Source: Candidatus Moanibacter sp. (GTDB taxonomy: Bacteria > Verrucomicrobiota > Verrucomicrobiia > Opitutales > UBA2987). Taken from it: a stretch of DNA of 64,000 nucleotides. A program made the translations under genes and the position numbers. The DNA is taken from assembly GCA_965215885.1 (NCBI GenBank), contig CBDCEW010000104.1:160001-224000 (forward strand). The letters run 5' to 3'. This document shows, in pieces, positions 3,880 to 39,505 of the stretch (within the stretch, counting starts at the first letter, position 1; the number at the start of each line of letters is the position of its first letter). The notes beneath the pieces are model-generated. The model was given only the letters and a program-made list of their open reading frames with translations, had not been told where the DNA came from and searched no databases.

Positions 3880-3883
3880 GCTT

Positions 3884-5800: not shown

Positions 5801-5924
5801 TAGATACTGGATTTAGCTTTCGTGCTTCAACTGTTAATCACCGTAGGAAACAGTGGTATGGCTGTACGCATCAGCGAGGCCAAGCATACTTTCCTGATGT
5901 TTGAATCTCGCTGGGTTCAATTCC

Positions 5925-6446
5925 CCGAAGCTTGCTTCGGCTTTAGTGGTATATGATGATAGGGGATGGGAAGTCGTTACATCCACAAAAGTCACAATGT
6001 ATCGGTGCTGATGTATCATCTGGTGTGCGCAGCGAAGTATCGTCGAGTTGTGATGAGTGAGCGTGTGGACGAGGTTCTGAGGGCAGCCTGCATCGAGATT
6101 GAAAAGCGCTGGGAGATTGTCTTCTTGGAAATAGGATTAGATCGAGACCATGCACACTTTCTGATCCAGTCGGTGCCGGCTTACAGTCCGACGAGGATCG
6201 TTACGACGGGGAAGAGTGTAACTGCGCGCGAAGTGTTTGCGAAAGCACCGGAGGTGAAGAAGCAACTGTGGGGCGGAGAGTTCTGGGGAAAAGGGTACTT
6301 CGTAAACACGGTGGGGCAACACAGCAGCGAGAGCGTGATCGCGGCCTATATCGCGAATCAAGGTGAGGAGGCAAATTACCAGCGATTGCATAAAGGGCAG
6401 TTGGAGTTGGGATTATTTTGAAAATGCCTCGGGGCTTGCCCCGAGG
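5925..6446 (+). mobile_element. IS200-type element (tnpA only) with subterminal hairpins
   Basis: Hairpins CCGAAGCTTGCTTCGG (5925-5940) and CCTCGGGGCTTGCCCCGAGG (6427-6446) flank tnpA; no tnpB. Confidence 0.8.
5966..6421 (+). CDS. tnpA: IS200/IS605 Y1 (HUH) transposase
   Basis: YHLVCAAKYRR, HUH motif DHAHFL, FWGKGYFVNTVG, catalytic YIANQ. Confidence 0.95.
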   Translation: MGSRYIHKSHNVSVLMYHLVCAAKYRRVVMSERVDEVLRAACIEIEKRWEIVFLEIGLDRDHAHFLIQSVPAYSPTRIVTTGKSVTAREVFAKAPEVKKQLWGGEFWGKGYFVNTVGQHSSESVIAAYIANQGEEANYQRLHKGQLELGLF

Positions 6447-6495
6447 ATCTTTACTACTTGATGTATCGCGGCAGCCAGCCGAATTCTAATCGGGG

Positions 6496-8851: not shown

Positions 8852-8966
8852 CTTTTTTCCCTCCCGTGACCACGGTATCTGCTTTTTCCGTTCATCCGTT
8901 GCCCTCTTATGATCCGCTGGTAATCTCCTCATCCGTGCCCATCCGTACTATAATCCGGCAGAACCT

Positions 8967-11340
8967 CAGAACTCGCTATCATGCGGGTTGGCGGGCAGGG
9001 GGCAATCGCAGATACAATTCCCGGCTTTTAAGAGCTAAAGAAAACGGTAGGCTTCATCTTCGAACCATCAAATTCGAAGAAAAATGGAGAAACCTACCGT
9101 CAAAGAAGAGACCTTCTTACAGTGCATCCTTGGAGTGGACAAGGGTAATCCCTCGATCACGGTCTATCGGGATCTGAGGGAAGGCAAACTGCACGTCTAT
9201 TACGGGCATGAGCTTTTTGAAGTCGTAGAGGACGATCGGGAGCAAGTTGAATTCAAGCTATTGGAGGGGCGCCTCTACAATGCGGGGTTGAAGAAAGGGC
9301 GCTTAGAGAAGCAATTTGAGGTTGACCCCAAAACGATGAAGCGGTGGGGGGAGGCGCTTCAAAGCGGAGATGCCGAGACCTTAGCGCGAGTGCTGGCGGG
9401 ACGCAGCGCTCATCGCAAATTGACGAGGGAAATCCGGAGTTTTGTGCGGGTGCGCTTCGGGCAGATCTATGGGGAGAGTCGGTATGGCTACAGCAAGAAG
9501 ATACGGGGGGAGATCGAGGAGGTGTTCGGAGTTAACCTCAGTGGGGAAACTTTGCGCCCTGTCTTTAAGGAGCTTAAAGAGGCCCGGGCAAAGGAGGCCG
9601 AAGCCGAGAGGGCGCAAAATCGGGAGACTCCCTGGGATTGCCCGGAGGACTCGGGGAGGGACGAACAGGAGCAAGAAGCAGAAAATAGCCCCGAAAGCGA
9701 AGGGGACAATCGCAAGGGGTCTCCCGATTTTTCGAGGGAGAGCTCCGAAGCGGTGCAATGGTATCGGCACCTGGGAGTACTTCTGTTCAGTGCCGCGCTC
9801 AGAGAAGTCGCTCAGATTGATCGCGAAGAGGGCTGGCTTTTGAAACAATGGGTGGCTTGCGGGTTGTTGGCCGCGGTCAATATCGAGCAGAGCAAACTGC
9901 TCGATCTCGAAGACCTGCAAAAACTCATCGGGCGAGTCCTGTATACCCCCTATCTGCAACGCCAAAGCCTTAGCGCCCTGGCCGATGAAGGGCTTTTAAG
10001 AGAGATCCTCAGAGTGAACGCGAGGGGCCTGAATGCTTCGGATGAAGAGAGCTTTTATTATGATCCGCACACCAAACATTACACCGGAATGAGCAAGGTG
10101 CTGGCGGGATGGTGTCCGGGTATCCGTCTGGCCGACAAAGCGCTCCACAGCGATTTTATTCATACCCTCAAGGGCTATCCGGTCTATTTTGCGAGCACTG
10201 ACAACTATGAGGATATAAGGGAACGGTTTATCCCCAACTGCGAAGCGATGCTCGAGCTGGTGCAGCTGCCGGCTGATAAAAAGGTGAGTATTTACGTGGA
10301 CCGGGCGATCGCCGCGGAGTGGTTTTACGAAGCCATCGTGGAGCACCCTCAACTCGAAATCATTACCTGGGAAAAAGGTTACAAGGCCAGCGCCCAGCCC
10401 CTCCAACGGATCGACGGGCAGTTGCGCCTGCAGCGCGCGCGCAACCATGCCGAAGATCTCCAGGAGTATCATCTTCGCTATCAGCGGGGCCCCTGGAAGA
10501 AAAATCCTCAACTGGTGCAGTGGATCGTGGAGGCGACCAATCCAAAAAATCGAACCATTACCGTGAGCATCCTGGCGACCGATCAGCAGGCCCGAAATGA
10601 AGAGGTAATCAAAGGGATGTTCAGTCGCTGGATTCAGGAGAATGACTTCAAATACCTCGATAAGCACTTTGGGATTAATCAGATCACCTCTTATCGCACC
10701 GTCCACTACAAGCGATTAGCCCAACACCTTGAGGACAAGCAGGAGAAAAGCGGTGCCGCCAAAGCCCTCCTGAAGCAAAAACAGCAATGCACCGAAGAAT
10801 TGAAAAGACTGCTCCTGGCCGAGCATGCCCACCCGGGCAAAAGCGCCTCAAGGGGCGAAAAGATCCGTCGACTCGATCAGGCCCTCAAAGCCCTCCAACT
10901 CGAACTGGAGCAAATCGACACCGAATGCTCGAGGCTGCAGCGCCTCATTGATGAAAACTATGTCCGCCTGGACACCGCTAACAAGTCCCTCATGGATGCC
11001 TTGAAAATCTTCGCCCGTAACAGCTTCTACAAGCAGCTCGAACCCTTTAAAGCTCGCTACAACAACTATCGTGACGACCACGATCTGTTTCGCAATTTGA
11101 CTCACAGTGACGGCGTTCTTATAGAGAGGGGCTGTGCGGTCGAAGCGCATTTATTCCCCACCGCAACTTATCCCCCTCGGGTGCAGGCGGTGGTGCTTGA
11201 GTATCTGCAAACTCTCAATCAGAAGCCCTTACTGATGCCCGACGGTTCAGGCCGAAGAATCATCTTCCGACTGGGCAAAAAATCGGGATTTAAACTTGCG
11301 ATTGCATAGTGCCTTTAGAGGGGCAATATAGTGAGGTCTG
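8967..11340 (+). mobile_element. 2.37-kb IS-like element with atypical transposase and 5-bp target duplication AACCT
   Basis: Imperfect IRs CAGAACTCGCTATCATGC / GCAATATAGTGAGGTCTG; AACCT at 8962-8966 and 11341-11345; empty site in the paralogous repeat near 15121-15140. Confidence 0.85.
9084..11309 (+). CDS. Large putative transposase (741 aa)
   Basis: N-terminal HTH-like segment; FYYDPHTKHYTG, IYVDRA and RWIQENDFKY as a candidate DDE triad; coiled coil; fills the IR-bounded element. Confidence 0.75.
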   Translation: MEKPTVKEETFLQCILGVDKGNPSITVYRDLREGKLHVYYGHELFEVVEDDREQVEFKLLEGRLYNAGLKKGRLEKQFEVDPKTMKRWGEALQSGDAETLARVLAGRSAHRKLTREIRSFVRVRFGQIYGESRYGYSKKIRGEIEEVFGVNLSGETLRPVFKELKEARAKEAEAERAQNRETPWDCPEDSGRDEQEQEAENSPESEGDNRKGSPDFSRESSEAVQWYRHLGVLLFSAALREVAQIDREEGWLLKQWVACGLLAAVNIEQSKLLDLEDLQKLIGRVLYTPYLQRQSLSALADEGLLREILRVNARGLNASDEESFYYDPHTKHYTGMSKVLAGWCPGIRLADKALHSDFIHTLKGYPVYFASTDNYEDIRERFIPNCEAMLELVQLPADKKVSIYVDRAIAAEWFYEAIVEHPQLEIITWEKGYKASAQPLQRIDGQLRLQRARNHAEDLQEYHLRYQRGPWKKNPQLVQWIVEATNPKNRTITVSILATDQQARNEEVIKGMFSRWIQENDFKYLDKHFGINQITSYRTVHYKRLAQHLEDKQEKSGAAKALLKQKQQCTEELKRLLLAEHAHPGKSASRGEKIRRLDQALKALQLELEQIDTECSRLQRLIDENYVRLDTANKSLMDALKIFARNSFYKQLEPFKARYNNYRDDHDLFRNLTHSDGVLIERGCAVEAHLFPTATYPPRVQAVVLEYLQTLNQKPLLMPDGSGRRIIFRLGKKSGFKLAIA

Positions 11341-11577
11341 AACCTTGTTTTTCTAGCAAGTTTTTGCGTAGAAGAGGTTGTTGGTATTCAATAAACTGCA
11401 GTCGACCCGTCGTCGCTTCGCTTTGCCGAGGCAGGCAAGGTTTGGGACAAGGTTCGCGACCCGTCGTCGCACTGCTTTGCCGAGGCAGGCGAGGTTACCC
11501 AAGGGAAGTAGGAGTTTCCTTCTGCATTCGCGTCCATCTGCGTTCATCTGCGGTTCTCTTCTTCTTTTTTGGTTGCG
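11341..11577 (-). repeat. Composite intergenic repeat (paralog of 15110-15302, related to 26941-27306 and 36951-37288) carrying two 30-nt micro-insertions
   Basis: Direct alignment to 15131-15302. Confidence 0.8.
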
Positions 11578-12219
11578 CTAGGTCATCCGTGGTAGATTCA
11601 TTCTCTGTTTTTCTTCTTCCATAGCGGGATGCTCTGCGATCATCCCTAACGCTTTTCTCAGGAGGGTTTTTCCCGGTTCCACGCGGGGCCATGGAGAGGC
11701 CCCGGAGGGGTGGGGGAGGGGAATCGTGTCGAAAAGATGCTTGTCGTAGGTGCATCGGAAACTGCGGCCGACGATTGCATCGAGACTCGAGTATTTCATA
11801 AATTGCGTAATGGCCAGTCTGCCGACTGGAATGACTAATTCCGGTCGCAGAATTTCCATCTCGGCTTTCAGCCAGCGGGAGCAGTTGGAAATCTCTGTCC
11901 GATCCGGAACGCGGTCACCGCCCTTCGGCTTCTTGCCGGGGAAGCAGCGGCAGACAGCTGCCATGTAAATGCTGGAACGAAAATCTTCCTCACTGAGTCC
12001 ACATGATTCCTTGAACCACTGGAAGAGCGTCTTCCCCGCGGTCCAGGCAAACGGGCGTTGCAACCGGGGTTCCTTTTCACCCGGCGCCTGCCCCACCAGC
12101 AGCACCTTGCTCACGATGGCCCGTCCCGTCACCACCGGGCTCTGCATATTCGGGCATAAGGCACAGGCACGGAGGGCACTGGTGTGTTGAAGGATAGATT
12201 CTCGGCGATTCATGAACAT
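11578..12219 (-). CDS. Uracil-DNA glycosylase family protein
   Basis: CALC Fe-S ligands, LVGQAPG, RCFPG, PLPHPSGAS. Confidence 0.9.
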   Translation of the reverse strand: MFMNRRESILQHTSALRACALCPNMQSPVVTGRAIVSKVLLVGQAPGEKEPRLQRPFAWTAGKTLFQWFKESCGLSEEDFRSSIYMAAVCRCFPGKKPKGGDRVPDRTEISNCSRWLKAEMEILRPELVIPVGRLAITQFMKYSSLDAIVGRSFRCTYDKHLFDTIPLPHPSGASPWPRVEPGKTLLRKALGMIAEHPAMEEEKQRMNLPRMT

Positions 12220-12505
12220 AAGTTAGGAAAAGGGTTCAATCATGACTGAATCGGGGCCACAGAGCGACACAGAGATGCACGGAGGCACCTAGCGCAGCAA
12301 ATCCGCAACCAAACTGGTAGGTGCTTCCGTGGAGAAGAGAATTGAACAGAAGGAAACAAAGAGAACGGAGAGGGATGATGGGTATACAATGTCTGTTTAA
12401 AACTACGTTTTCTCTCTACGTCGCTAGGGGCGTTCTCAGTCGAGTGGCAGGAACGGTTGCATCGATCGCGAAAATAGGAGTTCGAACATACGATAGAACG
12501 AATTA

Positions 12506-12662
12506 GGAGTCGACTTCGCCTCGCGCGCAGCGCGTCTGAAACGCCAAGAAGAGAATTCCCCAAAGCGCCCCCTTTCGGCGCAGAATGCAGGTGCGCTTTT
12601 GGGAATTCTCTTCTTGGCGTTTCTCCATTCTGCCAAACGGCAGATTTGGCGAAGTCGACTCC
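12506..12662 (+). repeat. Structured four-way-junction repeat, copy C
   Basis: Perfect 15-bp IR GGAGTCGACTTCGCC / GGCGAAGTCGACTCC; ~30-bp near-perfect central stem. Confidence 0.85.
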
Positions 12663-12752
12663 TTCCGACTTTCAGTCTGTGTAACTTAAGTTCTCCGTGG
12701 TCCTCTGTGGTGCTCTGTGACCCCTCTTTTGCCTTTCTACTTTCCTTATTTC

Positions 12753-14444: not shown

Positions 14445-14910
14445 TTCCGTTTGGCGGACTCTACGAGATTGAGAGATGAATAAGGAAGGAACCGCAGATG
14501 GACGCGAATGGACCCGTCTCCGTCCTCCGGGCTTCGCCGTGGCATGCGCGAATTTGGGAGGAAGACCCCGCGGATTCGAGGACACAGCGGGTTAATTCGA
14601 GAGGGAGTAACTAACGGATCAGGAAAACAACGGATTGTGAACAATTGGACCACAATTCTTTGAATACCATCCTCTTAAAATTCACCAAACAAAATACGTG
14701 TTCAGTCAACCAAGTTCTGATGGATAGTAGTGCAAATTGCTTTTGAAAAAAGAGGGCGGCAAGAAGATGCGATAGTTAAATTTCCGTGGAAACGGCGCCA
14801 GCCAGATAGTCATCGGCGTCCCGGATCGGGGAGTGAGAAGTAACCGCGGAATGAGGTTTTAATAAGGAAGGCAGGAAAGCAGGAAACTGCCCATACTATA
14901 GGCCGAGGTA

Positions 14911-15068
14911 GGAGTCGACTTCGCCTCTCCGCCATACGGGAGAGCCTGAAACGCGATGAGGAGCTTTCCCAAGATCGCGACTGCATTTTAGTCCACGAAT
15001 AGCGCTCTTGGGAAAGTTCCTCTTCGCGTTTCTCGACTCGCATAAGCGAGTTTGCGAAGTCGACACCC
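14911..15068 (+). repeat. Structured four-way-junction repeat, copy D (preceded by GTAG)
   Basis: GGAGTCGACTTCGC ... GCGAAGTCGAC with covarying internal stems. Confidence 0.8.
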
Positions 15069-15109
15069 TATTCTCCATCCTGCGACTGTGAGACCTGACT
15101 CCTCTATCT

Positions 15110-15302
15110 ATCCGTGCCACAATCCGGCAGAACCGTGTTTTCCGAGCTATTTTTTGCGCAGAAGAGGTTGGTATTCAATAAACTGCAGTCGACAAGGTTT
15201 GGGACAAGGTTCGCGACGAGGTTACCCAAGGGAAGTAGGAGTTTCCTTCTACATTCGCGTCCATCTGCGTGCATCTGCGGTTCTCTTCTTCTTTTTTGGT
15301 TG
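15110..15302 (-). repeat. Composite intergenic repeat; empty-site paralog of 8941-8966 plus 11346-11577
   Basis: Colinear alignment lacking the IS and both micro-insertions. Confidence 0.8.
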
Positions 15303-15716
15303 CCCGTTCGAGAGCCTCAGGGCCCCGAGCCTGTCGCGGGGCGGCTCTGCCACGCTAGGCCATCCGTCAAATCTCGCAGAGTCTGCTGTAAGGCAGATCC
15401 GCGGTCACGCTGATCCCGATTGACCTCAGGTCGAAAGATGTTTCCAGGTTGCGGCGCGCCGGGAGGAATCGAATTCTCTTCTCCATGTAAGGACCTACCA
15501 GTTTCCTGCTTTCCTTATTAATTCATCCCGGTACCGCGAGATCTTCAACGAACGCACCCGGATCCACCCTCCCGCAACTCGCATCCCCTCTTCCCACTGT
15601 CCACTGTTTACTGCTGAGCGCAGCGAAGTCCCGGTTTGCCGGGGTTCACTGTTTACTGACCACTGTTCACTAATTCTTCCTTCCTAACCATTTTTCTCTT
15701 GCCGGTTCGAAGTGTA

Positions 15717-15804: not shown

Positions 15805-16185
15805 ATGCAGTTTCGGTATTACCTGACCGATCGGCCGCGCTTCGAACATTGGATCGAAATGGCGGAATTCTCCGGTTACAAGGCCCGGAAAATGGCTGAA
15901 ATATACGGCGTCAGTCTCCGCACCCTGGAGCGCTATTTCGAGGAAGACCTCGCCCGAAAGCCCCAGGAATGGCTCAACGAACAGCGCATGATCACGGCCC
16001 GGGAAATGCTCGAATCCGGGAGATCAATCAAGGAGACAGCCGCTGACCTCGGCTTTAAGCAGACAACTCACTTTCACCGCGAATATAAGCGGGTGCATGG
16101 GGTAACGCCGTCGATCTTCCAAAGGCATACCGCAGTCGGTGAGCGGAGTAGGAAAAGAAGAGGAACCGCAGATGAACGCGAATGA
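15805..16185 (+). CDS. AraC-family HTH transcriptional regulator (DNA-binding domain only)
   Basis: SLRTLERYF, PQEWL, SIKETAADLGFKQTTHFHREYKRVHGVTP. Confidence 0.9.
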   Translation: MQFRYYLTDRPRFEHWIEMAEFSGYKARKMAEIYGVSLRTLERYFEEDLARKPQEWLNEQRMITAREMLESGRSIKETAADLGFKQTTHFHREYKRVHGVTPSIFQRHTAVGERSRKRRGTADERE

Positions 16186-16284
16186 ACGCGAAGCGATATT
16201 ACCGTCTATTCGCTGTTCCTACCCCATCCGAACCGCTAATGAAACCAAATTGACGCCAATACTTCTGTGTTTGTGATTTCGCGT

Positions 16285-16692
16285 TCATTCGTGTCCATTC
16301 GCCGTTCCTTCCAGCACCACTCTTTTCCACTCCAATTTTGCTCGTTTGAAATTTAGGATCAATCCGACTTTCAGCCCCGTAATCTTCAGATAATTGAGCA
16401 TTTGTCCCATTTCGTGATCTCCGATTTGCTCAAAAACTTTGGTGTCTACCACGATCTGGTCATACACGATGAGATCGGGGATGTACTCGCCGACGCTCAC
16501 GCCCTTATAAAGCACATCGTATGTCTGTTGTTGGCTGACTGGTATATCCCTGAATCCAAACTCCACAACGAGCGCATTCTCATAAGGTTTCTCCAACAAC
16601 CCATGACCGAGCTCATTTAGCACCTCCATGGCGCATCCTACAATCTGGAATGCTTCCTCCTTTAAGGGATATCCGCGTTCATTTGCGTCCAT
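16285..16692 (-). CDS. GxxExxY protein (PD-(D/E)XK-like nuclease fold), copy 1
   Basis: GHGLLEKPY, YIPDLIV, VDTK, QMLNYLKITGLKVGLILNF. Confidence 0.95.
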   Translation of the reverse strand: MDANERGYPLKEEAFQIVGCAMEVLNELGHGLLEKPYENALVVEFGFRDIPVSQQQTYDVLYKGVSVGEYIPDLIVYDQIVVDTKVFEQIGDHEMGQMLNYLKITGLKVGLILNFKRAKLEWKRVVLEGTANGHE

Positions 16693-16832
16693 TCGCGGTT
16701 CCTTCCCCTTCCGAAACGCTAATCAACGCTATTCGACGCAAATATTTCTGTGCCTCTGCGTTCGCGTTCATTTGCGTTCCTTCGCGGTTCTCTTCTGTAG
16801 TGCGATCCCCAGCCCGGGCTCATACCAGGGGC

Positions 16833-17876
16833 TCAGGGGCTGAGTATTGGCCCGGTATACTGGTATCCCCCTGAGTCGAAGGGATCTTCTGCCATAAGCA
16901 GCGGTGTATCGAGATCAAGGATACTGATTCCGCCAAGCCCCAGCACCAGAGAAAACGAGCAGCCCATTGCTACTCGGGTCTCGATCATTCCACCGATCAT
17001 CAGACCGATGCCGTGCGCCTTACAGAGAGTCGCAATGTCTATCGTTTCAAACAGACCGCTCTTGGTGACCTTCAGATTTATTATATCCGCTGCCCCTTTC
17101 TGAATAACTCGCAACGCATCTTCCAGAGAAAAGACAGACTCGTCCGCTGCGACCGGAAAAGCGGAGTTTTCACGAACCTTTTTTAATCCTTTGATATCAA
17201 ACCGATCGACCGGTTGCTCGAAAGCTTCCACAGTCAGATCGATCGCCTCGATCTTTCTGGCGAATGCAATCGCCTCTGTTGGTGTATAACCTTGGTTCGC
17301 GTCGATAATCAGGGATATTCCGGGATAACGCTCCGCCAAAGCGATGACGCGAGCGGCATCCTCCTCAACATCTAATCCAACCTTTAATTTTCGAAACCCC
17401 TTTTTAGCGATCTCTAGTGATTCTTCGACGCCTCTAATCGGTATTGTGATGTCAGTCTCATAATTTCTGACATCAGCGCCACCCCAGAGCGCCCACAATG
17501 GAATCCCGCTCCCGCGACTGAACGCATCGACAATTGCTGTCTCGAACCCACAACGTACTGCCGCGAGATGAGGAATCCGGGATCGAATCTCCTTCGAAAT
17601 CTTTCGAAAGTTTGTTACCGAGCTTCCAATTACGAATTCCGCAAGGTCCTTCGCGGCGCTGAGGCTGTCCTCTCGGGTCTCTTTGGTCAGTTCGGGAAAG
17701 GGCGCTATCTCACCGTACCCGATGCACCCGTTCTCCAGTATCAAGGTAACTATTAGACTCCTCGCTACCGTTACTTCCCCTTTAGCGATTGTAAAGGCAT
17801 CGATTAGCGGCACTTCGATCGGTGAAATCTCAACATCGGCGATCGCAAATCCGCTGTCTGTACTGCGTTGTTTCAA
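16833..17876 (-). CDS. Dipeptide (L-Ala-D/L-Glu) epimerase family, copy 1; small deletions near the KxK motif and a truncated C-terminus, possibly pseudogenizing
   Basis: GYGE, KLKVG, IDANQGY, EQPV, ADES, NLK, DLD; shorter than copy 2 at EIAKKGFRKLK. Confidence 0.85.
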   Translation of the reverse strand: MKQRSTDSGFAIADVEISPIEVPLIDAFTIAKGEVTVARSLIVTLILENGCIGYGEIAPFPELTKETREDSLSAAKDLAEFVIGSSVTNFRKISKEIRSRIPHLAAVRCGFETAIVDAFSRGSGIPLWALWGGADVRNYETDITIPIRGVEESLEIAKKGFRKLKVGLDVEEDAARVIALAERYPGISLIIDANQGYTPTEAIAFARKIEAIDLTVEAFEQPVDRFDIKGLKKVRENSAFPVAADESVFSLEDALRVIQKGAADIINLKVTKSGLFETIDIATLCKAHGIGLMIGGMIETRVAMGCSFSLVLGLGGISILDLDTPLLMAEDPFDSGGYQYTGPILSP

Positions 17877-18384
17877 AACGAAATCGTCATGGAAGAAAGA
17901 GCCAATGAAAAACGGAACCGAGATTACCAGAGCGTGAACGCAATGCCAACCAGATCCTCATCGAGGTCCTGCGTGGGAGCTTGAGAGAACCAGAAATGTG
18001 AGCTGAATAAGGAAAGCAGGAATGCAGGAAAAGAGGGTGTCCCGGAGCGGAGCCATTTGGAGAATAGGGGTCGACTCTGTTGTAATCCCGCTCAGGTTCC
18101 AATTGTATCAGGTCAAATTGTAACGATTGATTCCGTTGCAAATTCCTTCTCGTCCGTAATTGCCCTGTGAAGTTGAAAGCTTTCCTGCCTTCCTGCTTTC
18201 CTTATTCATCAATCTTCTGTTCATCGATCCTCGCGTCTCGACAATATTCTTCGAACTGAAACCAGACTCATCATTCCAGAGTTCTATCATCATGTCACGG
18301 CGGAGATCCGCATCGGCGGAGAGCAGACGAATCATTCACTCACTTCCCCTCACTTTGCGTCTTAGCCGCTTTGCGTGAGGCCTC

Positions 18385-18736
18385 TATCACGTTACGGCGC
18401 AGTTCCGCATCGCCTAAACGGAGACAGATCCACTCTTTTCCGCCGTCAGCTTTCCGCACTCTCGAGCGCCGTTTTCAGGAGGCCTCGCCCGAAAACCCCA
18501 GGAATGGCTCAACGAGACAGATCCACTCTTTTCCGCCGTCGCCTCCGCATCTCGAGCGCCGTTTTCAGGAGGGCCTCGCCCGAAAACCCCAGGAATGGCT
18601 CAACGAACAGCGCATTATGCCGGCCCGGGTGATGCTCGAAAGCGGGAAGTCAATCAAGGAGACCGCAGCCGACCTAGGTTTTAAGCAGACGACCCACTTT
18701 CACCGGGAATATAAGCGGATGCATGGGGTGACGTAG
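18385..18736 (+). pseudogene. Degraded AraC HTH paralog
   Basis: Homologous to 15805-16185; N-terminus lost, ~93-bp internal tandem duplication, premature TAG. Confidence 0.8.
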
Positions 18737-19011
18737 TCGATCTTCCAAAGGCATACCGCAGTCCGTGAGCGGAGCCGTTATAGAAGAGGAACCGCAGATG
18801 CACGCAAATGAACGCGGATTGCTTCTAAGAGAGGAGGACGAGCACAATGGAATCTCGGAAACGTGAAAAAATAGGGATGGAACCGCAAATGGACGCAGAT
18901 GAACGCGAATGAACGCGAAGCGATATTACTGTCTATTCGCTGTTCCTTCCCCATCCGAACCGCTAATGAACGCAAATTGAAGCCAATACTTCTGTGTTTC
19001 TGATTTCGCGT

Positions 19012-19419
19012 TCATTCGTGTCCATTCGCGGTTCCTTCCAATACCACTCTTTTCCACTCCAATTTTGCTCGTTTGAAATTTAGGATCAATCCGACTTTCA
19101 GCCCCGTAATCTTCAGATAATTGAGCATTTGCCCCATTTCGTGATCTCCGATCTGCTCAACAACTTTGGTGTCTACCACGATCTGGTCATACACGATGAG
19201 ATCGGGGATGTACTCGCCGACGCACACGCCCTTATAAAGCACATCGTATGTCTGTTGTTGGCTGACTGGTATATCCTTGAATCCAAACTCCACAACGAGC
19301 GCATTCTCATAAGGTTTCTCCAACAACCCATGACCGAGCTCATTTAGCACCTCCATGGCGCATCCTACAATCTGGAATGCTTCCTCCTTTAAGGGATATT
19401 CGCGTTCATTTGCGTTAAT
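19012..19419 (-). CDS. GxxExxY protein, copy 2 (equivalent start codon is ATT; start uncertain)
   Basis: About 6 aa differences from copy 1; start region overlaps the epimerase stop codon. Confidence 0.85.
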   Translation of the reverse strand: MNANEREYPLKEEAFQIVGCAMEVLNELGHGLLEKPYENALVVEFGFKDIPVSQQQTYDVLYKGVCVGEYIPDLIVYDQIVVDTKVVEQIGDHEMGQMLNYLKITGLKVGLILNFKRAKLEWKRVVLEGTANGHE

Positions 19420-20797
19420 CTGCGGTTCTCTTATGGAGTCCCAGTCCGGGCTCATACCATGGGCTGAGTATTGGCCCAGTATACTGATATCCCCTTGAGT
19501 CGAAGGGATCTTCTGCCAGAAGCAGCGGTGTATCCAGATCCAGGATACTGATTCCACCAAGCCCGAGAACGAGAGAGAACGAACAGCCCATCGCCACCCG
19601 GGTCTCGATCATTCCACCGATCATCAGACCGATGCCATGCGCCTTACAGAGAGTCGCAATGTCTATCGTTTCAAATAGACCGCTCTTGGTGATCTTCAGA
19701 TTGATGATATCCGCTGCCCCTTGCTCAATAACCCGCAATGCATCTTCCAGAGAAGACACAGACTCGTCGGCTGCGATTGGAAAGGCGGAGTTCTCACGAA
19801 CCTTTCTTAGCCCGTCGATATCGTAACGATCGACCGGTTGTTCGAAGGCCTCCACAGTTAAATCGATCGTCTCCAATCTTTTCGTAAAAGCAATTGCCTC
19901 GGTGGAAGTATATCCCTGGTTCGCGTCAATAATCAGGGATACGCCAGGATAACGTTCCGCCAAAGCGATGACGCGAGCGGCATCCTTCTCGATATCCAAT
20001 CCCACTTTTAACTTAAATTTGCGAAACCCCTTTTCGTGCCACTTTTCAGCGATCTGGAGTGAATCGCCAACATCCCTGATCGGAATAGTGATGTCGGTCT
20101 CGTGATCCCTGACATCAGCGCCACCCCAGAGCGCCCACAGTGGCAGCCCGCACCCGCGACTGAACGCATCAACAATTGCCGTTTCAAATCCACAGCGTAC
20201 CGCCGCAAATCGCGGAATCCGTGATCGGATCTCAGTCGAAATATTTCGAAAATAAGCTGCAATGTTCCCGATTACGAAATCCGCGATGTCGTTGGCGGCG
20301 TTGAGGCTGTCTTCCAGGGTCTCACCGGTCAGTTCGGGAAACGGCGCTATCTCACCGTACCCGATGCACCCGTTCTCCAGTTTCAGGTTAACGATTAAAT
20401 TCCGCGCCACGGTTACTTCCCCTTTTGCAACGGTAAAGGCATCCATTAGCGGCAGATCGATCGGTGATACCTCAACATTGGCGATCGTGAAGTCACGAAT
20501 CGCCGCAGATTCCCCGAATTCCGCCCTGTCTGGAGGGGAAGTTAGCTTTTTACGGGTGTCGCTCAAATTGTCCCCCACTACATCGAATTCATCATTGAAG
20601 AAAGAGCCAACCAAAAACGGGACTGAGATTGTGAGAGCGTCGTGTAAAGCTAAATGAACGTCCTGAATTTTCTGAAGGAGTCGGGCGAGGGTCATGCCGT
20701 CGATTTCGATTCTGGTGCAAAACCGCTCGATTTGAATACCGCGACTACGTTCTTGCGAACGCGGAGGGTTTTTCACCAGAATCCAATTTTTGGACAA
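19415..20797 (-). CDS. Dipeptide epimerase family, copy 2, with N-terminal extension (probable start ATG 20695 or later)
   Basis: Full enolase-superfamily motifs KFKLKVG, DANQGY, EQPV, DES, DLD, PGLG. Confidence 0.88.
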   Translation of the reverse strand: MSKNWILVKNPPRSQERSRGIQIERFCTRIEIDGMTLARLLQKIQDVHLALHDALTISVPFLVGSFFNDEFDVVGDNLSDTRKKLTSPPDRAEFGESAAIRDFTIANVEVSPIDLPLMDAFTVAKGEVTVARNLIVNLKLENGCIGYGEIAPFPELTGETLEDSLNAANDIADFVIGNIAAYFRNISTEIRSRIPRFAAVRCGFETAIVDAFSRGCGLPLWALWGGADVRDHETDITIPIRDVGDSLQIAEKWHEKGFRKFKLKVGLDIEKDAARVIALAERYPGVSLIIDANQGYTSTEAIAFTKRLETIDLTVEAFEQPVDRYDIDGLRKVRENSAFPIAADESVSSLEDALRVIEQGAADIINLKITKSGLFETIDIATLCKAHGIGLMIGGMIETRVAMGCSFSLVLGLGGISILDLDTPLLLAEDPFDSRGYQYTGPILSPWYEPGLGLHKRTAD

Positions 20798-21045: not shown

Positions 21046-21876
21046 ATGGCGCGTCCAACAATGAATTGGATTCTCATAAGTACGATCAACGTGATGATCC
21101 TTGGAATCGTGTTGTTGCAGGGTGGTTGCAGGTCAATCGACAAAGTTACACCAGAACGCAGCATTCAAAAAGCCTGGCTAAAAGAGGGTCAGATCGATGC
21201 TTTTAATAAGGCTCTTCACGATGCTTTCGATGAATGGAAGAATGAGGGAGAGAATAAAAGAGAGTTCTTTGAATATGAGATTCTTGGGCCGCGCACGATC
21301 TACTCAGGGAATGATAGCGACGAATATCATTGGGAGATTTCCCACCCGGAGTATGTAAACGTGGTTTTGGCTGCACCAAGCGCAGTTGAGCCAGTAAACG
21401 AAACACTTACAAAGGTGAAGGTTGTTTCAAAAGACGTAGAAAATATCCGGCAATTCTCAATACGATTAGTTTGGACTTATGAAGTTGAAAAAAGGTTTTT
21501 TTCAGAAGTAATTCAGGTTAAGAGCGGGGAAAGGCCAGAACAAAGTGGTGATATTGAAGCTTGGTTTCAAGTGGAAGACTTTGCGAATGCAAGAAAGCAT
21601 TTTGGCTTAGTCTTTGCTGAGACGTTTTACTGTATCAAAGTCTTCCTGAAAAATGGATATGATGTCCCAGTGCGCGTTGATGCGGGTTCAATTGAGCTGC
21701 CGATATTTTATATCTCCAAAATGAGCGAGGAAACTAAGGATCCATATTCTTATCAATTCGGTTATTATCGGCAGTTTCGGAGAGGAGTATTTGCTTTTGA
21801 GTATGATAATATCATTTACAGGGTGGAGTCCGCATTTCGTGTACCTATGAATTTCACAGCAATTATTAATACATTT
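21046..21876 (+). pseudogene. Putative lipoprotein truncated by ISL3
   Basis: Hydrophobic leader ending LQGG-C; AT-rich; the frame runs into the IS at 21877. Confidence 0.6.
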
Positions 21877-23359
21877 GCCTCGTCAGCAGAATCTGTGGGT
21901 TATTTCGGGTTCAGGCAAGTCGCCCATGGTATGAAATAGGGCGATCTTAAGCACTTCGAAGCTCTTAAAGCCGTATGCTTTTCTGATAGTGAGATTTATA
22001 TTGCGGTTAAAGCCCTCCACAATGCCGCAGGAAAAGGCCTTTTTGGCCCGAAACCAGTTGAGGATGAGCGGCTCGTGTTTGCGCACCGAGCGCACGAACC
22101 TTTTGATCGGTTTGAGGCGCGAACGCATGGCGCGCGTGCACCATTTTTTCAGATACCATTGGGCCCAGTAGGGACTTTTATAATGCCACAAGAGCTGAAA
22201 GCTCTCCTTTAGTAGATAGGCCCGCACGCTCTTCAGATCGTATTGGAGCACCTCCTTGAGGCGGATCTGTTGGGTGGGGGTGAGATTTTGCGGATTTTTC
22301 AAGAAACAGTATTTGCTTTTGACCAGCACGTTGATGTAGCCGTCCCGTTGCAATCGCCTGGCTTCCGCAGCACGAATCTCATTGAGGGCCTTGTTCAGGT
22401 TGGCTACCAAGTGGAAGCGATCGAGGATGTGCAGCGCCTGGGGTGCCTTTTTCTTGATCACTTTGAGGTAAGGCTTCCACAGATCCGAGCAGACGTAGAG
22501 GATCTGGCTGCTCTTTTGCGCTCCCAATTCCCAGAAAAAACGCAAGAGCGATTTTACGTTGCGCTTATTGAATACGCCCAATAGCCGCCGCCGCCCCTCG
22601 TCAAGCTGGTAGACCACGGTGAGATAGTGATGGCCTCGATGATACTGCACCTCATCGACTCCGATCGCCTCAATCCCGCTCATATCGCGCCGTTTGAGCC
22701 CCCAACGCACCATCGCCTCGACCGACTCGAAGACGTTGCGCCAGTTCGTGCGAAAAACCCTTGCCGTCTCTTCCCAGCTCAAGCGCCTCGCCCACTGGGC
22801 CAGAAACCATTGCATTGGCCAACTCAGATGACTCTTGCCCTTGGCCCAGGGCACCTCTTCGACCTTCACCCCGCACCGCCGGCAATTGACCCGCCGCATG
22901 CGGTAACGAAAATACACCTTCATCCCCCACAAGGGCACAAATTCAAAATGCCTCGCCTCGCTCATGTGGTCGTAGCCGCTGGCCGTCCGGCCACACCCCG
23001 AACAGCACACCCGACTATTCTTGCGCGGCTCAATCTGCACCACAATCGCCTCCTCCGATTTCACCATTTCCATACTCGCCTTTGCGTAAACAAAGCTCTT
23101 GAGCCAATAGCACCGATTCAGTAGCGTTTTGATGAGCACTGGGTCCTCCGTGTTCAGGATGTATTTTCGGTACTACTTTCATCCTCGGAACGGCCCGGTG
23201 CTTCAACCTTTCAATCCCATATGCAAAGAAAACACCGACCAGCCCCTCCGGCTGTGGAGGAGCGGGATTCAGGGCAGCGCCCTGACTTCTCCTTGTGCTC
23301 ACCGACTCTATTTCCTCTTGTAAGCGACGTTACCCACCCACAGATTCTGCTGTAGACCC
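21877..23359 (-). mobile_element. ISL3-family element, copy 1 (1483 bp, no target duplication)
   Basis: IRs GCCTCGTCAGCAGAATCTGTGGGT / ACCCACAGATTCTGCTGTAGACCC; appears identical to 32330-33812. Confidence 0.95.
21883..23139 (-). CDS. ISL3 transposase
   Basis: Zn-finger CSGC/CRRC, IGVDE, CSDLW, LDRFH, VEGFN, RKAYGF. Confidence 0.95.
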   Translation of the reverse strand: MLIKTLLNRCYWLKSFVYAKASMEMVKSEEAIVVQIEPRKNSRVCCSGCGRTASGYDHMSEARHFEFVPLWGMKVYFRYRMRRVNCRRCGVKVEEVPWAKGKSHLSWPMQWFLAQWARRLSWEETARVFRTNWRNVFESVEAMVRWGLKRRDMSGIEAIGVDEVQYHRGHHYLTVVYQLDEGRRRLLGVFNKRNVKSLLRFFWELGAQKSSQILYVCSDLWKPYLKVIKKKAPQALHILDRFHLVANLNKALNEIRAAEARRLQRDGYINVLVKSKYCFLKNPQNLTPTQQIRLKEVLQYDLKSVRAYLLKESFQLLWHYKSPYWAQWYLKKWCTRAMRSRLKPIKRFVRSVRKHEPLILNWFRAKKAFSCGIVEGFNRNINLTIRKAYGFKSFEVLKIALFHTMGDLPEPEITHRFC

Positions 23360-23422
23360 AAAAAATTAAGTTCTGATGGATTGTAGTTCAAACAGTCCCA
23401 AACATCTACATGATTTGCTTGT

Positions 23423-26891: not shown

Positions 26892-26940
26892 GTAACGAAA
26901 CTGCGGGACAGAAGAGGGCTGCAGAGGGTCCTCGCGCAGC

Positions 26941-27306
26941 AGAGCCGCAACCAAGAAAGAAAAAGAGAACCGCAAATGGACGCAAATGAACGCGAATAAA
27001 GAGGAAGGCACCACGGATTCGAGCCGTCTTCGCTGCGCTGCGCCGTGCGATGGAAAACCGCAGATTTGATGAAGAGGGATTCCCAACGGTTCGACAGGCT
27101 CACCCGAACTCATAAACAGTGAGGAGATTCTTGATCGAATCGAGAAGGTAACTCGGAATACTCTGGTAACCTTGCATGCCTCGGCAAAGCAGAGCGACGA
27201 CGGGTCCCGAACCTCGCCCCGAACCTTGTCGGCCCCACAACTTGGAATACCAACATGTTACACTCCAAAACGTGTTCAAAAAACTAAGTTCTGACGGATA
27301 GTAATA
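26941..27306 (+). repeat. ~340-365-bp composite intergenic repeat
   Basis: Near-identical to 36951-37288. Confidence 0.85.
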
Positions 27307-27620
27307 CAGAGCGACACTGAGAACTACCGAGGCACACTGAGCAGACCAAGGTGGACGAAGTGGAAAGGTTGCGGTGACCAGTAATCTTTTGGGGCCGTGG
27401 GCCTATGGAAGAGAAGAGGGCCCTTGTGCAGCGTAGCCGCCCTGCGACCCGTGGAGCGGGATCAGGGCCCTAAGCCTGCCGAACGTGCAACCAAAAAGAA
27501 GAAGAGAACCGCAAAATGCATAGAAGCTACGGGAAAAGAATCTGTTCCACCCTCCAAAGGATCCAAGGACCCAAAAAATACCATAGACAGGAGGCGGCAA
27601 TTGGTTAATCGTATTGCCTC

Positions 27621-31854: not shown

Positions 31855-32329
31855 GTAGTGGTCGGTGGAAAAGTTGCAGAGTTTAAGAGAAGAGAGATGG
31901 CCACAAAAGAACGCAAAGAACACAAAGGGAGTCCCGGCCTGCCGGGAGGGAAAGGGACAAAGAGATGCCTAGCGTAGCCGCAACTACTTCGTTTCATGGA
32001 ATTTGTAGCGGAAATCGGGAGATTTTCGGAGAAGTGAATGAGAGAATGGAAATGGTGAAATCAAGGATGAAGGGGTTCAGGGTTCCCGTTTTCGTCCTTC
32101 GGGCACTTCCGAAGTAGGCAGAGTACAGATTACAGTTCCGGAAAGTCGGGATAAGAAGGGCATTCCCACGGGTGCAGTAGCAAAACCACTGTTCCCTGCG
32201 GTGATCGATCGATGAAGGAGGAAAGCCAAACCGAGGCATTAGTCGATGAAGAGAGCGATGGTCACTGGTAGGCACAGTGGTATTGGGCGAAGCCCGCAGT
32301 GGGTAAAATGGCATGTGATTAATAATTAA

Positions 32330-33812: not shown

Positions 33813-33895
33813 TTAATTAATTGGTGAACTGTTGAATTTGTGAATTGTTAATGAACGATGGATCCGTCTTCGCTCCACTCTTCGCCGCGGCAGGC

Positions 33896-36783: not shown

Positions 36784-36950
36784 GCGGTAAAGAGAATTGA
36801 ACAGAAGGAAACAGAGAAAATAGAGAGAATGAGGAAAGAATTCTCACGCAACGGTCTTCGACCCGCAAGCGTCACTACGCCCTGTCGAGAAGCCGGAAAG
36901 AACGCAAAGGGAGCAGCTCTGCCGTACGGCAGAGAGGTACCACAGAGATG

Positions 36951-37288
36951 CAGAGCCGCAACCAAAAATGGAAAATAGAACCGCAAATGGACGCAAATGA
37001 ACGCGAATTAAGAGGAAAGCACCACGGATTCGAGAAAACCGAAGATTCGATGAAGAGGGATTCCCAACGGTTCGACAGGCTCGCACCGAACTCATAAACA
37101 GTGAGGAGATTCTTGATCGAATCGAGAAGGTAACTCGGAATACCCTGGTAACCTTGCATGCCTCGGCAAAGCAGAGCGACGACGGGTCCCGAACCTTTGT
37201 CGCGAACCTTGTCGACCCCACAACTTTGAATACCAATATGTTACACTCCAAAACGTGTTCAAACCTAAGTTTTGACGGATTGTAATAC
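36951..37288 (+). repeat. Composite intergenic repeat, paralog of 26941-27306
   Basis: Direct alignment. Confidence 0.85.
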
Positions 37289-37572
37289 GGAGGAGACACA
37301 GCCAAAAGTGAGGAGGGGGAGAAACGGAGACGGGGAGACGCAAGCGAACCTTTGTCGTATGCTTCGTCGTCAACTTAGTCGCCCGATTCGGTCATTCAGT
37401 CGATGAAGCTTACGATAAAGCTTGCGACGAAGTTTGGAGAAGGTTTACACGCCGTAAGGAATCCTTTGTCGTCAACTTCGTCGCGAGCTTTGTCGCTGTT
37501 TATCGGCTGATATCTCGAGTAAGTTTACGATAAAGCTTACGATGAAGTAGAGAAGAGATGGGTCCCCCGGAA

Positions 37573-38766: not shown

Positions 38767-39119
38767 ACAGAAGGAAACAAAGAGAACGGAGAGGGAAAGA
38801 GAGGAACCGCGAATGAACGCGAATGGACGCGAATTTGGGAGAAAGAGCCCGCGGATTCGAGGACACCGCGGAATTGTTCAAGAGGGATTTCTCAACGGAT
38901 TCGAGAATACAACGGTGTCCAGTCCTGATTAAAAGTGGACACGAGTTTAATCGGTTTCGGGAGAATCTTCGTCGTAAGCCTCGTCGTCAGCTTTGTCGAA
39001 ACATCGAACGTCGAAATCAGCACTTTCCTCCTTCGTTCCCGCTCCTGACCACTGAGGACTGGGCGGTGTTCGATTTTCGAAGCCGGATTAGGAGCACAAT
39101 GCCAGAAGGACATCCTAGT

Positions 39120-39200
39120 GTAGCCGCGGCCGCTAAGGACGCGGTCGATTGGAACATAGTCGCTGGTCCTTCCGTCCGCGTCCTTAGCGGCCGCGGCTAC
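39120..39200. repeat. GTAG-type REP doublet (REPIN-like)
   Basis: Perfect 25-bp IR GTAGCCGCGGCCGCTAAGGACGCGG / CCGCGTCCTTAGCGGCCGCGGCTAC. Confidence 0.8.
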
Positions 39201-39505
39201 GCAACGTCCAACATCGAACGTCCAAGACCTTCCTCCTTCGTTCCCGCTTCGCTCCTGATTTCGGAGGACGGGTCGGTGTTCGAAGTTTCCCGACAAGCCG
39301 GCGCAAAGGGGGAGAGGAAGACCCGACCCTTCCGTTCGGCAGGGTAACCAGTAACCAGTGTCCAGTATCCAGCGCCCAGTAGGCTTCGTGTTTCATCAAT
39401 CGACTTTTTGAGATTGTTTCGAAATTCGAAATTCGGTATTCGGATCTTCCATGACACCATTATTCCACCTTCTACACACATGAGAATTCCTGACTGCTTC
39501 CGACA

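Follow-up and report, generated by a model that had tools for sequence, protein, structure and literature searches.

In systems of the RAYT/REP/REPIN/BIME kind a small nuclease gene is tied to a cognate inverted repeat (Bertels and Rainey 2011, PMC3116915; Bertels et al. 2017, PMC5581495). The function of the PDDEXK_3/GxxExxY protein family is listed as unknown (PMC3424549), and our literature search found no description of a link between GxxExxY genes and repeats. Intergenic repeats of the TAACTGA heptamer lie near start codons, supply stops in all three frames, occur across phyla and have no known mechanism (MacGregor 2015, PMC4679880).

Here we analyze a window, i.e., the whole presented stretch of 64,000 nucleotides, that carries two GxxExxY genes (TIGR04256/PF13366), both on the minus strand, between short periodic repeats called arms. 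We read the locus best as a RAYT/REPIN-like system whose enzyme is a nuclease of the Cas4/RecB type; judging from sequence comparison, this protein probably binds to the DNA of the arms and sets off copying between them. Like RAYT, GxxExxY has a cognate inverted repeat, of which numerous copies lie in intergenic DNA with no gene attached. A genome can contain several such pairs of gene and repeat, the genes are seldom duplicated and almost never found on plasmids, and the repeats form mosaic clusters. Abundant gene-less repeats, cognate to the flanks of GxxExxY genes, are confined to gene-bearing genomes. The differences are as follows: GxxExxY is a PD-(D/E)XK protein whereas RAYT is an HUH Y1 tyrosine transposase; the arms are built from 2-4 words in phase, joined by linkers that are uncompensated, whereas REPs are self-folding; start and stop codons lie inside GxxExxY arms; and the GxxExxY gene is itself copied arm-to-arm and crosses phyla.

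GxxExxY shares the PD-(D/E)XK core and the E, D, (D/E)xK and QxxxY motifs with Cas4, lambda exonuclease and RecB. Unlike these nucleases, it has 125 aa and is apparently specific for the sequence of its own flanks; the four Fe-S cysteines and cas/CRISPR context of Cas4 are lacking, with no conserved cysteines in the alignment and no CRISPR array or cas1 nearby. Free-standing homing endonucleases are also nuclease genes located between host genes, and they spread by cut-and-repair gene conversion, as is proposed below for GxxExxY. However, GxxExxY has dozens of unrelated sites, which argue against a single target; it apparently recognizes its own repeats and is far outnumbered by gene-less copies. 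The TAACTGA repeats are likewise short-period and intergenic, near start codons, but they are mostly direct 7-mers, and a nuclease link is unreported in the part of that paper available to us.

Two further kinds of element were considered. Integron attC sites, which have RYYYAAC...GTTRRRY ends with bottom-strand asymmetry and depend on an IntI integrase, are imperfect hairpins just after stop codons and form hairpin-gene-hairpin layouts. The arm family of the window resembles them in its AAC...GTT ends, in hairpins right behind stop codons and in such layouts, but AAC/GTT ends are present in some arm families only, the mismatches have no strand asymmetry, and no integrase was found among the 43 window proteins scanned; the attC reading was rejected. 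As to an insertion sequence or MITE of the DDE type, profile matching found no DDE transposase (the gene is PF13366), and no target-site duplication is seen at locus L035 or, by eye, at the gatA-gatB junction.

Two GxxExxY genes and their arms

The features of the two gene loci are listed below.

15805..16185, plus strand: AraC-type HTH host gene, duplicate A, ending inside an anti-arm
16163..16190, plus: outer anti-arm of copy A, which gives the convergent AraC gene its stop codon
16167..16701, minus: arm-bounded segment, homogenized with 18894-19428 (96.4% identical; flanks 82-86%)
16230..16257, plus: inner anti-arm of copy A
16280..16307, minus: 3' direct arm with the TGA of copy A
16285..16692, minus: GxxExxY copy A, 135 aa (residues A14, F15, V18; E34, D73, D83, K85, Q97, Y101)
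16674..16701, minus: 5' arm with the ATG of copy A
16713..16742, plus: degenerate anti-arm (by sequence and fold) in the upstream unit of copy A
16763..16790, minus: arm in the additional hairpin unit (89 nt) that lies upstream of copy A
16833..17876, minus: L-Ala-D/L-Glu epimerase-like host gene, duplicate A
18371..18736, plus: AraC-type HTH fragment, duplicate B
18789..18816, plus: outer anti-arm of copy B
18880..18917, plus: anti-arm of copy B with four units, of which a contig of run X3 lacks one (10 nt)
18957..18984, plus: inner anti-arm of copy B
19007..19034, minus: 3' direct arm with the TGA of copy B
19012..19419, minus: GxxExxY copy B; the first in-arm codon is ATT, and the frame is open upstream to 19560
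19401..19428, minus: 5' arm of copy B, which gives epimerase B its stop (TAA)
19415..20797, minus: epimerase-like host gene, duplicate B (ORF), ending inside the arm

The original prediction, made from the letters of the window, described arms of 10-nt period around the GxxExxY genes, with complementary arms closing the locus. A mismatch scan found them, at 16163, 16230, 18789, 18880 and 18957 on the plus strand and 16280, 16674, 16763, 19007 and 19401 on the minus strand. Together with the six orphan arms listed below, the scan gave 17 matches at no more than 8 mismatches (one of them a 10-nt-shifted repeat of 18880) compared with 0-1 in 10 dinucleotide-model shuffles. The predicted direct-repeat units flanking copy A were recovered as well (16690-16790 and 16207-16307 are identical at 78 of 101 nt), and the paralogs do differ by whole units of about 100 nt, copy A having 89 nt more upstream and copy B 101 nt more downstream. 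The hairpin nature of these units held for the 3' cluster (16160-16309 folds as DNA, z -5.5), while the 5' unit is weak (z -1.9/-2.4). Start and stop codons had been described inside arms. This is true of the ATG of copy A (16692) and of both TGA stops, but in copy B the start position in the arm reads ATT instead of ATG because the TAA of the epimerase overlaps there. A scan of positions 11000-40000 against Rfam gave nothing at the gathering score and only three sub-threshold miRNA matches (12537-12624).

Both copies lie in one old tandem duplication of the block epimerase-GxxExxY-AraC and are not separate insertions at unrelated sites. An 8-nt duplication introduces an early stop into epimerase duplicate A and is absent in contigs of runs X3 and X7; X7 is an RNA run whose contigs cover parts of the locus and carry no strand, ends or level. 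Epimerase orthologues of three relatives (L081, L082 and L083; 64-68% aa identity) occur without GxxExxY; they may not be syntenic and are not counted as empty sites; in L081, the one whose downstream DNA was read, the epimerase is followed by another gene and no arm.

The protein scores 131 bits with TIGR04256 (cut-off 35) and 120.6 with PF13366 (cut-off 22). Its PD-(D/E)XK-like nature was borne out by the core fold of the structural model (pLDDT 90) and by the core residues E, D and (D/E)xK, conserved in 218-219 of 219 sequences; E34, D73, D/E83, K85, Q97 and Y101 are conserved in 213-219 of 219. The nearest folds are Cas4 (SSO0001, Z 7.7, rmsd 3.1, 98 residues aligned) and lambda-type exonucleases, every match being below Z 8. 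By this model, GxxExxY is a small protein of nuclease fold. A sequence search returned no solved homologues, PADLOC did not match the window protein, and one relative has weak Cas4b matches (E 2.5e-4).

Gene-less arms and their distribution

An arm word is C-R-C-N-R-A-N, 7 bp long, and arms are arrays of 2-4 such words in phase. The arms of the window are a mixture of A and G words. Purine positions of the word agree between the arms of one locus (100% and 89%), and linker positions are uncompensated (0.41 vs null 0.42). No terminal or target sequence common to the arm families was found. Variant families had been reported in other intergenic gaps. The words CACAGAG/CACGGAG, CAGAAGG, CGCAAAG and CACGGAT are each matched by a GxxExxY gene elsewhere in this genome; the AGGAAAGCAGGAA family is not, as no gene with that word was found among 11 matches in the same genome or among 236 loci.

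Arms and repeats without a gene in the window are the following.

11529..11556, minus: solitary arm in a composite repeat
12257..12725, no strand: paired hairpin of the CACAGAG/CACGGAG family; inside it lie a second hairpin and half-arms that belong to other families
14489..14516, plus: gene-less arm, inverted relative to 15256, 770 nt apart
15256..15283, minus: gene-less arm in a composite repeat
26917..27314, plus: composite repeat with a solitary arm (26967-26994); 7 further copies of 365-421 nt, 73-87%
36950..37292, plus: composite repeat with a solitary arm (36978-37005), within a polar train of several arm families
38804..38831, plus: solitary arm behind a CAGAAGG-type arm

All six orphan arms of the original prediction are thus present. 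Orphan arms in this genome are mostly solitary half-arms in mosaics and not two-ended non-autonomous elements. Among the 91 arms of the whole genome, a partner lies within 300 nt for 10 and within 1 kb for 14, mostly at the two gene loci, and 37 sit behind a different motif within longer composite repeats. Inverted doublets (the REPIN type) are not the main form here, with 14 of 91 arms paired; listings for other genomes show many close pairs. The arms do not follow a three-frame stop rule: within 29 nt, zero, one and two frames are stopped in 6, 20 and 21 of 47 arms, and three never.

GxxExxY was found in 131 of 251 sampled genomes of the host phylum, often in several copies. Neither of the conditions named as refuting the original prediction was borne out. 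Arms are far from equally abundant in genomes without the gene: at least 4 copies occur in 1 of 120 gene-less and 80 of 130 gene-bearing genomes, and at least 10 in 0 of 120, 59 of 130 and, for genomes with the close clade, 32 of 35. Empty orthologous sites exist. The gatA-gatB junction is empty, hairpin-only or gene-filled across 28 syntenic genomes; gene and arm type are exchanged together there, orthologous sites flip between arm families within one genus, and different families stop at the same position, followed by a shared right flank.

Residue 14, base 5 and arm-bounded copying

Residue 14 of GxxExxY predicts base 5 of the arm word in the far (3') anti-arm. In the held-out set Thr14 occurs in 43 of 62 G-arm loci and in none of 46 A-arm loci, and the rule is correct in 73 of 75 held-out cases. 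For every one of three held-out clades this residue comes out on top among 118 columns. The rule succeeds in 140 of 144 cases, compared with 109 of 144 for nearest-neighbour prediction, and in 33 of 35 rows where the neighbour is discordant. Ser14 is found with both bases (16 and 16 loci), Thr14 in two A loci of the discovery set, and CGTYAAT arms in 3 of 4 Ile14 loci. The purine that comes second in the word (CAC vs CGC) has no clear partner residue; the highest excess MI is 0.19.

Physical linkage was rejected as the cause of the rule: codons 9-22 carry no synonymous signal, and codons 23-45 have a weak scattered one (5/23 at p<0.05). Thr14 is encoded by all four Thr codons. The arm type switches 15-18 times on a tree built from codon 23 onwards. 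In an independent-pairs test too few pairs lie on branches with good support (3-4; median p 0.25), and none of them runs the opposite way. One residue predicts one base of the flanking repeats; therefore GxxExxY likely recognizes its own repeats. Val, Ala or Ile goes with A-T and Thr with G-C, which by general protein-DNA codes fits reading of the thymine methyl group. The first helix of GxxExxY is likely to read the 7-bp arm word, as far as such covariation can tell. The protein variant predicts the orphan word of the same genome in part: the match is loose for Thr proteins, G exceeding A in 6 of 10.

After the tandem duplication the arm-bounded segment was homogenized (4/118 synonymous differences vs 79/281). 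At L035 two arm-to-arm copies are identical at 430 of 431 positions with unrelated flanks, and the right flank of copy 1 is the flank of a neighbouring gene-less hairpin. Identity ends at the arms in L072/L075 and extends about 110 nt past the 5' arm in L055/L066, while in L008/L016 and L045/L050 the copies moved along with flanking genes. Gene and arms do move as a unit, but "autonomous unit" overstates the case. Duplication is rare (1 of 118 within-genome pairs is at least 90% identical, with exact duplicates collapsed beforehand and one exact pair found), the gene has long been inherited vertically at some sites including gatA-gatB, and it matches none of 50,697 phage records and 8 of 72,556 plasmids. 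Logan contigs of 6 runs, which are fragmented by these repeats, gave no credible excision or circle joint; a 19400-to-16763 joint is accounted for by paralog mapping.

Possible mechanisms and meaning

We propose that the first helix of GxxExxY would read the 7-bp word, which recurs in phase at a spacing of roughly one helical turn within the inverted arms around the gene. The protein would bind the arms directly, and the residue-14 base pattern suggests DNA rather than RNA as the substrate. It may then cut at arms, and host repair by gene conversion or crossover would leave gene-less hairpins, solitary arms, direct-repeat units and, rarely, new gene copies. Targets would be arm-bearing gene junctions, and the first colonization of an arm-free site lies outside the model. 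Since the 10-nt period supplies stop and ATG codons in shifting frames, arms located at operon junctions probably do no harm. On this comparative evidence we see the case as evenly balanced for the prediction that a word-reading nuclease cuts at arms and that the host, through repair, copies or exchanges the DNA bounded by arms from junction to junction.

It is possible, although unlikely, that GxxExxY is instead a transposase: it would cut the hairpin out of a cruciform or of single-stranded DNA, and the hairpin would pass through a free intermediate (a circle or a hairpin) to a new site, with no need for a pre-existing arm. REPINs have reportedly been proposed to move through such free intermediates. 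The L035 copies, which differ in their flanks and lack a target duplication, the arm-limited identity of L072/L075, the common end point of gatA-gatB families before the shared right flank, and the paired gene-less hairpins common in other genomes all agree with transposition. However, we know of no strand-transfer chemistry for a metal-dependent PD-(D/E)XK site, the families share neither a terminal nor a target sequence, no more than 14 of the 91 arms here have a partner, and the right flank of L035 copy 1 fits recombination at an existing arm.

A domesticated host factor that binds its arms (an operator-like repressor, a chromosome-organizing protein or a defense accessory), its gene hitchhiking on repeats dispersed by host recombination or other transposases, appears improbable. 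It would account for the long residence at gatA-gatB, the absence from phages and rarity on plasmids, the many R-M or BREX genes among GxxExxY neighbours, and the amplification of composite repeats as larger units. Against it, 120 of 250 relatives have neither the gene nor arms, the neighbours at these dozens of unrelated sites are functionally unrelated, sites flip arm family within a genus, PADLOC has no match for the window protein, and of the 29 Y1_Tnp matches in the genome, one of 20 loci checked has an arm nearby.

Least probable is an RNA system, in which the target of binding or cleavage would be the arm duplex of the operon mRNA, for autoregulation or for processing of the kind known from rRNA intervening sequences, while the DNA spreads otherwise. 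In 58 of 69 loci GxxExxY has the orientation of its upstream gene, the upstream ORF terminates within the arm in 20 of 58, 45 of 67 orphan arms lie on the same strand as the gene upstream of them, and in a 651-nt transcript fold (z -4.5) the distal anti-arm is paired with the 5' arm and a purine pad, but the arms show no G-U excess (G-U vs A-C mismatches 49 vs 56), their variable positions are uncompensated, the Thr versus Val/Ala base reading suits DNA better, and arm-to-arm DNA copying and solitary arms are left unexplained.

Returning to the RAYT/REPIN-like reading, we lean slightly towards regarding GxxExxY proteins as the enzymes of an undescribed, very widespread kind of mobile DNA, Cas4/RecB-type nucleases with a one-residue switch that may move hairpin-ended cassettes, with or without the gene, into operon junctions. 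The rule linking residue 14 to base 5 points to the likely substrate of this family. If true, this reading would account for a large part of the repeats between genes in GxxExxY-bearing genomes and would provide a second RAYT/REPIN-like system, chemically unrelated to the first. It would also mean a new mobilization chemistry, and few sequence-specific nucleases with a readable, re-programmable code would be as small as GxxExxY.

Genes and arms in the window

Two GxxExxY genes lie in the window. They belong to one tandem duplication of an epimerase gene, GxxExxY and a convergent AraC gene:

16285-16692, minus strand, GxxExxY copy A (TIGR04256 and PF13366 matches)
19012-19419, minus strand, GxxExxY copy B (TIGR04256 and PF13366 matches)

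Profile searches score them at 131 bits (TIGR04256) and 121 bits (PF13366). Both are set among arms, 10-nt-period repeats of the word C-R-C-N-R-A-N, whose inverted partners we call anti-arms. A 28-nt arm query (16674-16701) has 17 matches in the window at ≤8 mismatches, against 0-1 in shuffled sequences (n=10), and 123 in the whole genome at ≤7. The window search recovered all six orphan (gene-less) arms listed in the original prediction. The start and stop codons, noted as lying inside arms, do so in copy A (ATG, TGA); the first codon of copy B is ATT. The two 101-nt stretches proposed as direct repeats around copy A agree at 78/101 nt, and the paralogs do differ by units of about 100 nt, with an extra 89-nt unit upstream of copy A and an extra 101 nt downstream of copy B. 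Arms also provide the stop codons of epimerase B and AraC A. Orphans had been taken for non-autonomous derivatives. In this genome they are mostly solitary: 14/91 arms are paired within 1 kb, and 37/91 stand behind another motif, inside composites.

Segment 16167-16701 is 96.4% identical between the duplicates, and its flanks are 82% and 86% identical. Synonymous differences affect 4/118 codons of the GxxExxY core, 79/281 of the epimerase (25/106 in its last third) and 12/55 of AraC (Fisher tests against the core: 9e-10, 5e-6 and 2.5e-4 for the epimerase, its last third and AraC). As read from these comparisons, the locus carries the record of a recent transfer bounded by arms. An assembly artefact is less likely, because in Logan contigs of sequencing runs X1 (possibly the source sample) and X4 the core is a single 357-nt unitig at ~1.6-2x the depth of its flanks, and contigs spanning the copy A junctions are present. 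At 18450-18550, contigs of runs X1 and X3 have 8 nt in place of a 99-nt AraC-fragment stretch.

Other repeats accompany the arms. Intergenic gaps (36760-37550, 38750-39400, 26917-27520, 14450-15700) are polar trains of 5' half-arms of many families, with one strand purine-rich and the 3' halves missing, and 300-400-nt composites recur about eight times at 73-87% identity. A motif ending in CCGCAACCAAA (e.g. 26940-26960) has 86 matches genome-wide, stands before 37/91 arms and is linked to no gene in this genome. The AGGAAAGCAGGAA family (7752, 13381, 14873, 15503, 18010, 18190; 35 matches genome-wide) had no cognate GxxExxY gene among 236 loci. Elsewhere in the genome there are a CGCAAAG-arm GxxExxY gene interrupted by a ~150-nt insert (G000:C96:15509-16037) and a 268-aa tandem two-domain GxxExxY-like protein lacking recognisable arms (G000:C105:17712-18461). 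TIGR02436 four-helix-bundle genes (13 matches) have 7-nt-period flanking repeats, noted by eye at G000:C80:2031, C94:27983, C103:182873 and C70:19426. Ordinary multi-copy insertion sequences occupy 21865-23369, 32318-33820, 5900-6456, 3874-5815 and 8958-11605 (two ISL3, IS200/IS605, DDE_Tnp_1 and Transposase_29-like).

Distribution, architecture and the moving unit

TIGR04256, the arm pattern and the window protein served as queries against 250 genomes from this phylum, each ≥90% complete. Arms are not equally abundant in genomes lacking GxxExxY: at least 10 arms were found in 0/120 such genomes, eight of which had 1-5 matches, and in 59/130 genomes with any GxxExxY gene. The latter include 32/35 with close-clade genes (minimum 6 arms) and 27/95 with other clades only. 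Inside the 16 families having both states, arms were more numerous with the gene in 11, fewer in 2 and tied in 3, related genomes not being independent.

Empty sites, as expected of a mobile unit, exist as well. The gatA-gatB junction, examined in 30 genomes, is syntenic in 28; 15 of these are gene-less and 13 hold GxxExxY (one with an internal deletion); the arms around the gene are of four types, linked to protein subtypes. Among the gene-less genomes, five have spacers of ≤11 nt, and the rest have short spacers, remnants or hairpins that belong to several families and enclose no gene. Genus g40 shows three states and genus g37 two gene types. Residence at this site can last long, since two subtypes are common to several genera.

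Of 79 related loci (from the best 80 of 372), 76 show an arm or anti-arm in the upstream 220 nt and 71 a downstream anti-arm, against 40/935 control windows. An in-frame ATG lies within the arm in 46/79. Layouts vary (arm-gene-antiarm 34, arm-gene-hairpin 16, plus others). In 76% of 54 loci the 5' arm and the anti-arm have the same outer word (shuffled 25%, maximum 43%), and an inverted repeat joins both flanks in 213/236 loci of several subfamilies (mismatched pairs 57-59, shuffled letters 6). Arm families track protein clades. By crude ORF calls, the upstream ORF ends at -32 to +30 nt from the arm start in 47/58 loci, inside the arm in 20. Neighbouring genes are of mixed function: R-M, BREX and housekeeping operons (89/147 flanking ORFs scanned). 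Elements recur at BREX junctions (pglZ-brxL in L043 and L050; after brxC in L048 and L053) and at type I R-M operon junctions (L015, L072, L075).

Gene duplication is rare, with ≥90% identity in 1/118 within-genome pairs. Locus L035 has two copies, 430/431 nt identical and 1676 nt apart; identity starts 4 nt beyond the 5' arm and stops 1 nt beyond the anti-arm, the flanks are unrelated, and these copies have no target duplication. Such copying fits recombination at a pre-existing arm, because one flank is part of an adjacent gene-less hairpin, though an assembly mis-join is possible there. The same island has a tRNA-like sequence just before one gene copy (1890-1962) and a duplicated arm-bounded 138-nt segment (2613-2903, 4854-5091). 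Between L072 and L075 (different phyla, 88% core) identity is lost at the arms; L008/L016 and L045/L050 retain flanks, and in L055/L066 identity runs ~110 nt further. A ~50-nt imperfect direct repeat, possibly a recombination site, brackets the L055 element (2870-2930, 3430-3480), its upstream copy occurring also in L066. Tandem arrays in which an arm is repeated together with the first 30-60 gene codons (L071:2221-4422; also L062, L049, L032; periods 112-194 nt) suggest amplification starting at the arm. In collections that under-represent the hosts, GxxExxY was absent from 50,697 phage records and present in 8/72,556 plasmids, all non-mobilizable and <40% identical.

Correspondence between residue 14 and base 5

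Arms of one locus agree in their purines (base 5 100%, base 2 89%), their linker positions agree at chance level (0.41 vs 0.42), and mismatches are balanced (G-U 49, A-C 56). For these reasons the arms look like arrays of putative binding words rather than a duplex under selection to pair.

Residues 14, 15 and 18 followed base 5 in the discovery set. They lie in helix 1 (11-28 in the model), past the arm-coded residues 1-7. Another 120 loci were added for a held-out test, giving 236 proteins (219 anchored, 179 with a typed 3' anti-arm); the held-out set came to 108 loci once the window's own 2 genes and 3 exact repeats of discovery genes had been taken out. Thr14 occurs in 43/62 loci with G at base 5 and 0/46 with A, Val/Ala/Gly in 2/62 and 30/46, and Ser in 16 loci of either kind. 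The rule holds for 73/75 loci. Residue 14 is the top of 118 columns separately in the clades with T, G or A at base 7 (47, 51 and 8 loci). It is correct in 140 of 144 loci, against 109 for the nearest neighbour on the remaining protein, and in 33/35 where that neighbour differs. Synonymous sites of codons 9-22 carry no signal for base 5. By eye, CAGGAT-arm loci have Thr14 in 7/7, and three Ile14 loci bear CGTYAAT arms (exception, L223). Weighing against the rule, well-supported branches yield no more than 3-4 independent pairs, with none in the opposite direction (p 0.25), although the tree requires arm type to change 15-18 times. Among genomes with close-clade proteins, counted with part of each GxxExxY set, A-type arms exceed G-type in 14/16 Val/Ala genomes, and G-type lead in only 6/10 Thr genomes. 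Across the 219 proteins, residue 25, on the helix face of 14 and 18, varies with base 7 (Leu/His/Tyr with T/G/A), confounded with clade.

Enzyme, mechanism and known systems

The AlphaFold2 model (pLDDT 90) best matches PD-(D/E)XK proteins, namely lambda-type exonucleases and Cas4 SSO0001 (Z 7.7), with every match below Z 8; our search found no solved sequence homologue. Catalysis is probably under selection, as E34, D73, D/E83, K85, Q97 and Y101 are retained in 213-219/219 proteins.

The association of GxxExxY genes with arms is real, and from it we infer a mechanism. Helix 1 would quite probably bind phased words in DNA. The enzyme would then cut at arms, and host repair would convert or cross over there, copying arm-bounded DNA; the whole chain we believe about as much as we doubt. 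Direct REPIN-like transposition is an unlikely alternative route for such copying. Less likely still is a domesticated host factor with passively spreading repeats, and least of all action on RNA: Val, Ala and Ile contact the thymine methyl and Thr can hydrogen-bond a G-C pair, so DNA is the more probable substrate.

In its way of working the system resembles RAYT/REPIN, a small HUH Y1 tyrosine transposase gene with cognate inverted repeats (PMC3116915, PMC5581495). It nevertheless falls outside that group: the GxxExxY enzyme is unrelated to RAYT and its arms are word arrays. The tested features of DDE insertion sequences with MITEs and of Cas4 were not found in the GxxExxY system, nor those of attC in its arms (attC and homing endonuclease features being general knowledge). 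Rfam gave no family matches over 11000-40000 of the window. The name GxxExxY occurs in three papers of the literature searched. In the parts available, PMC3424549 describes PDDEXK_3 as of unknown function with multiple transfers, 10.1101/2021.01.26.428298 names GxxExxY in connection with a gene taken for cas4, PMC12085832 contains the term, and PMC4679880 reports similar heptamer repeats without a nuclease. Within the literature searched, main texts of open journals, this is an undescribed nuclease-plus-repeat system. The single-residue difference gives the GxxExxY mechanism a direct test.
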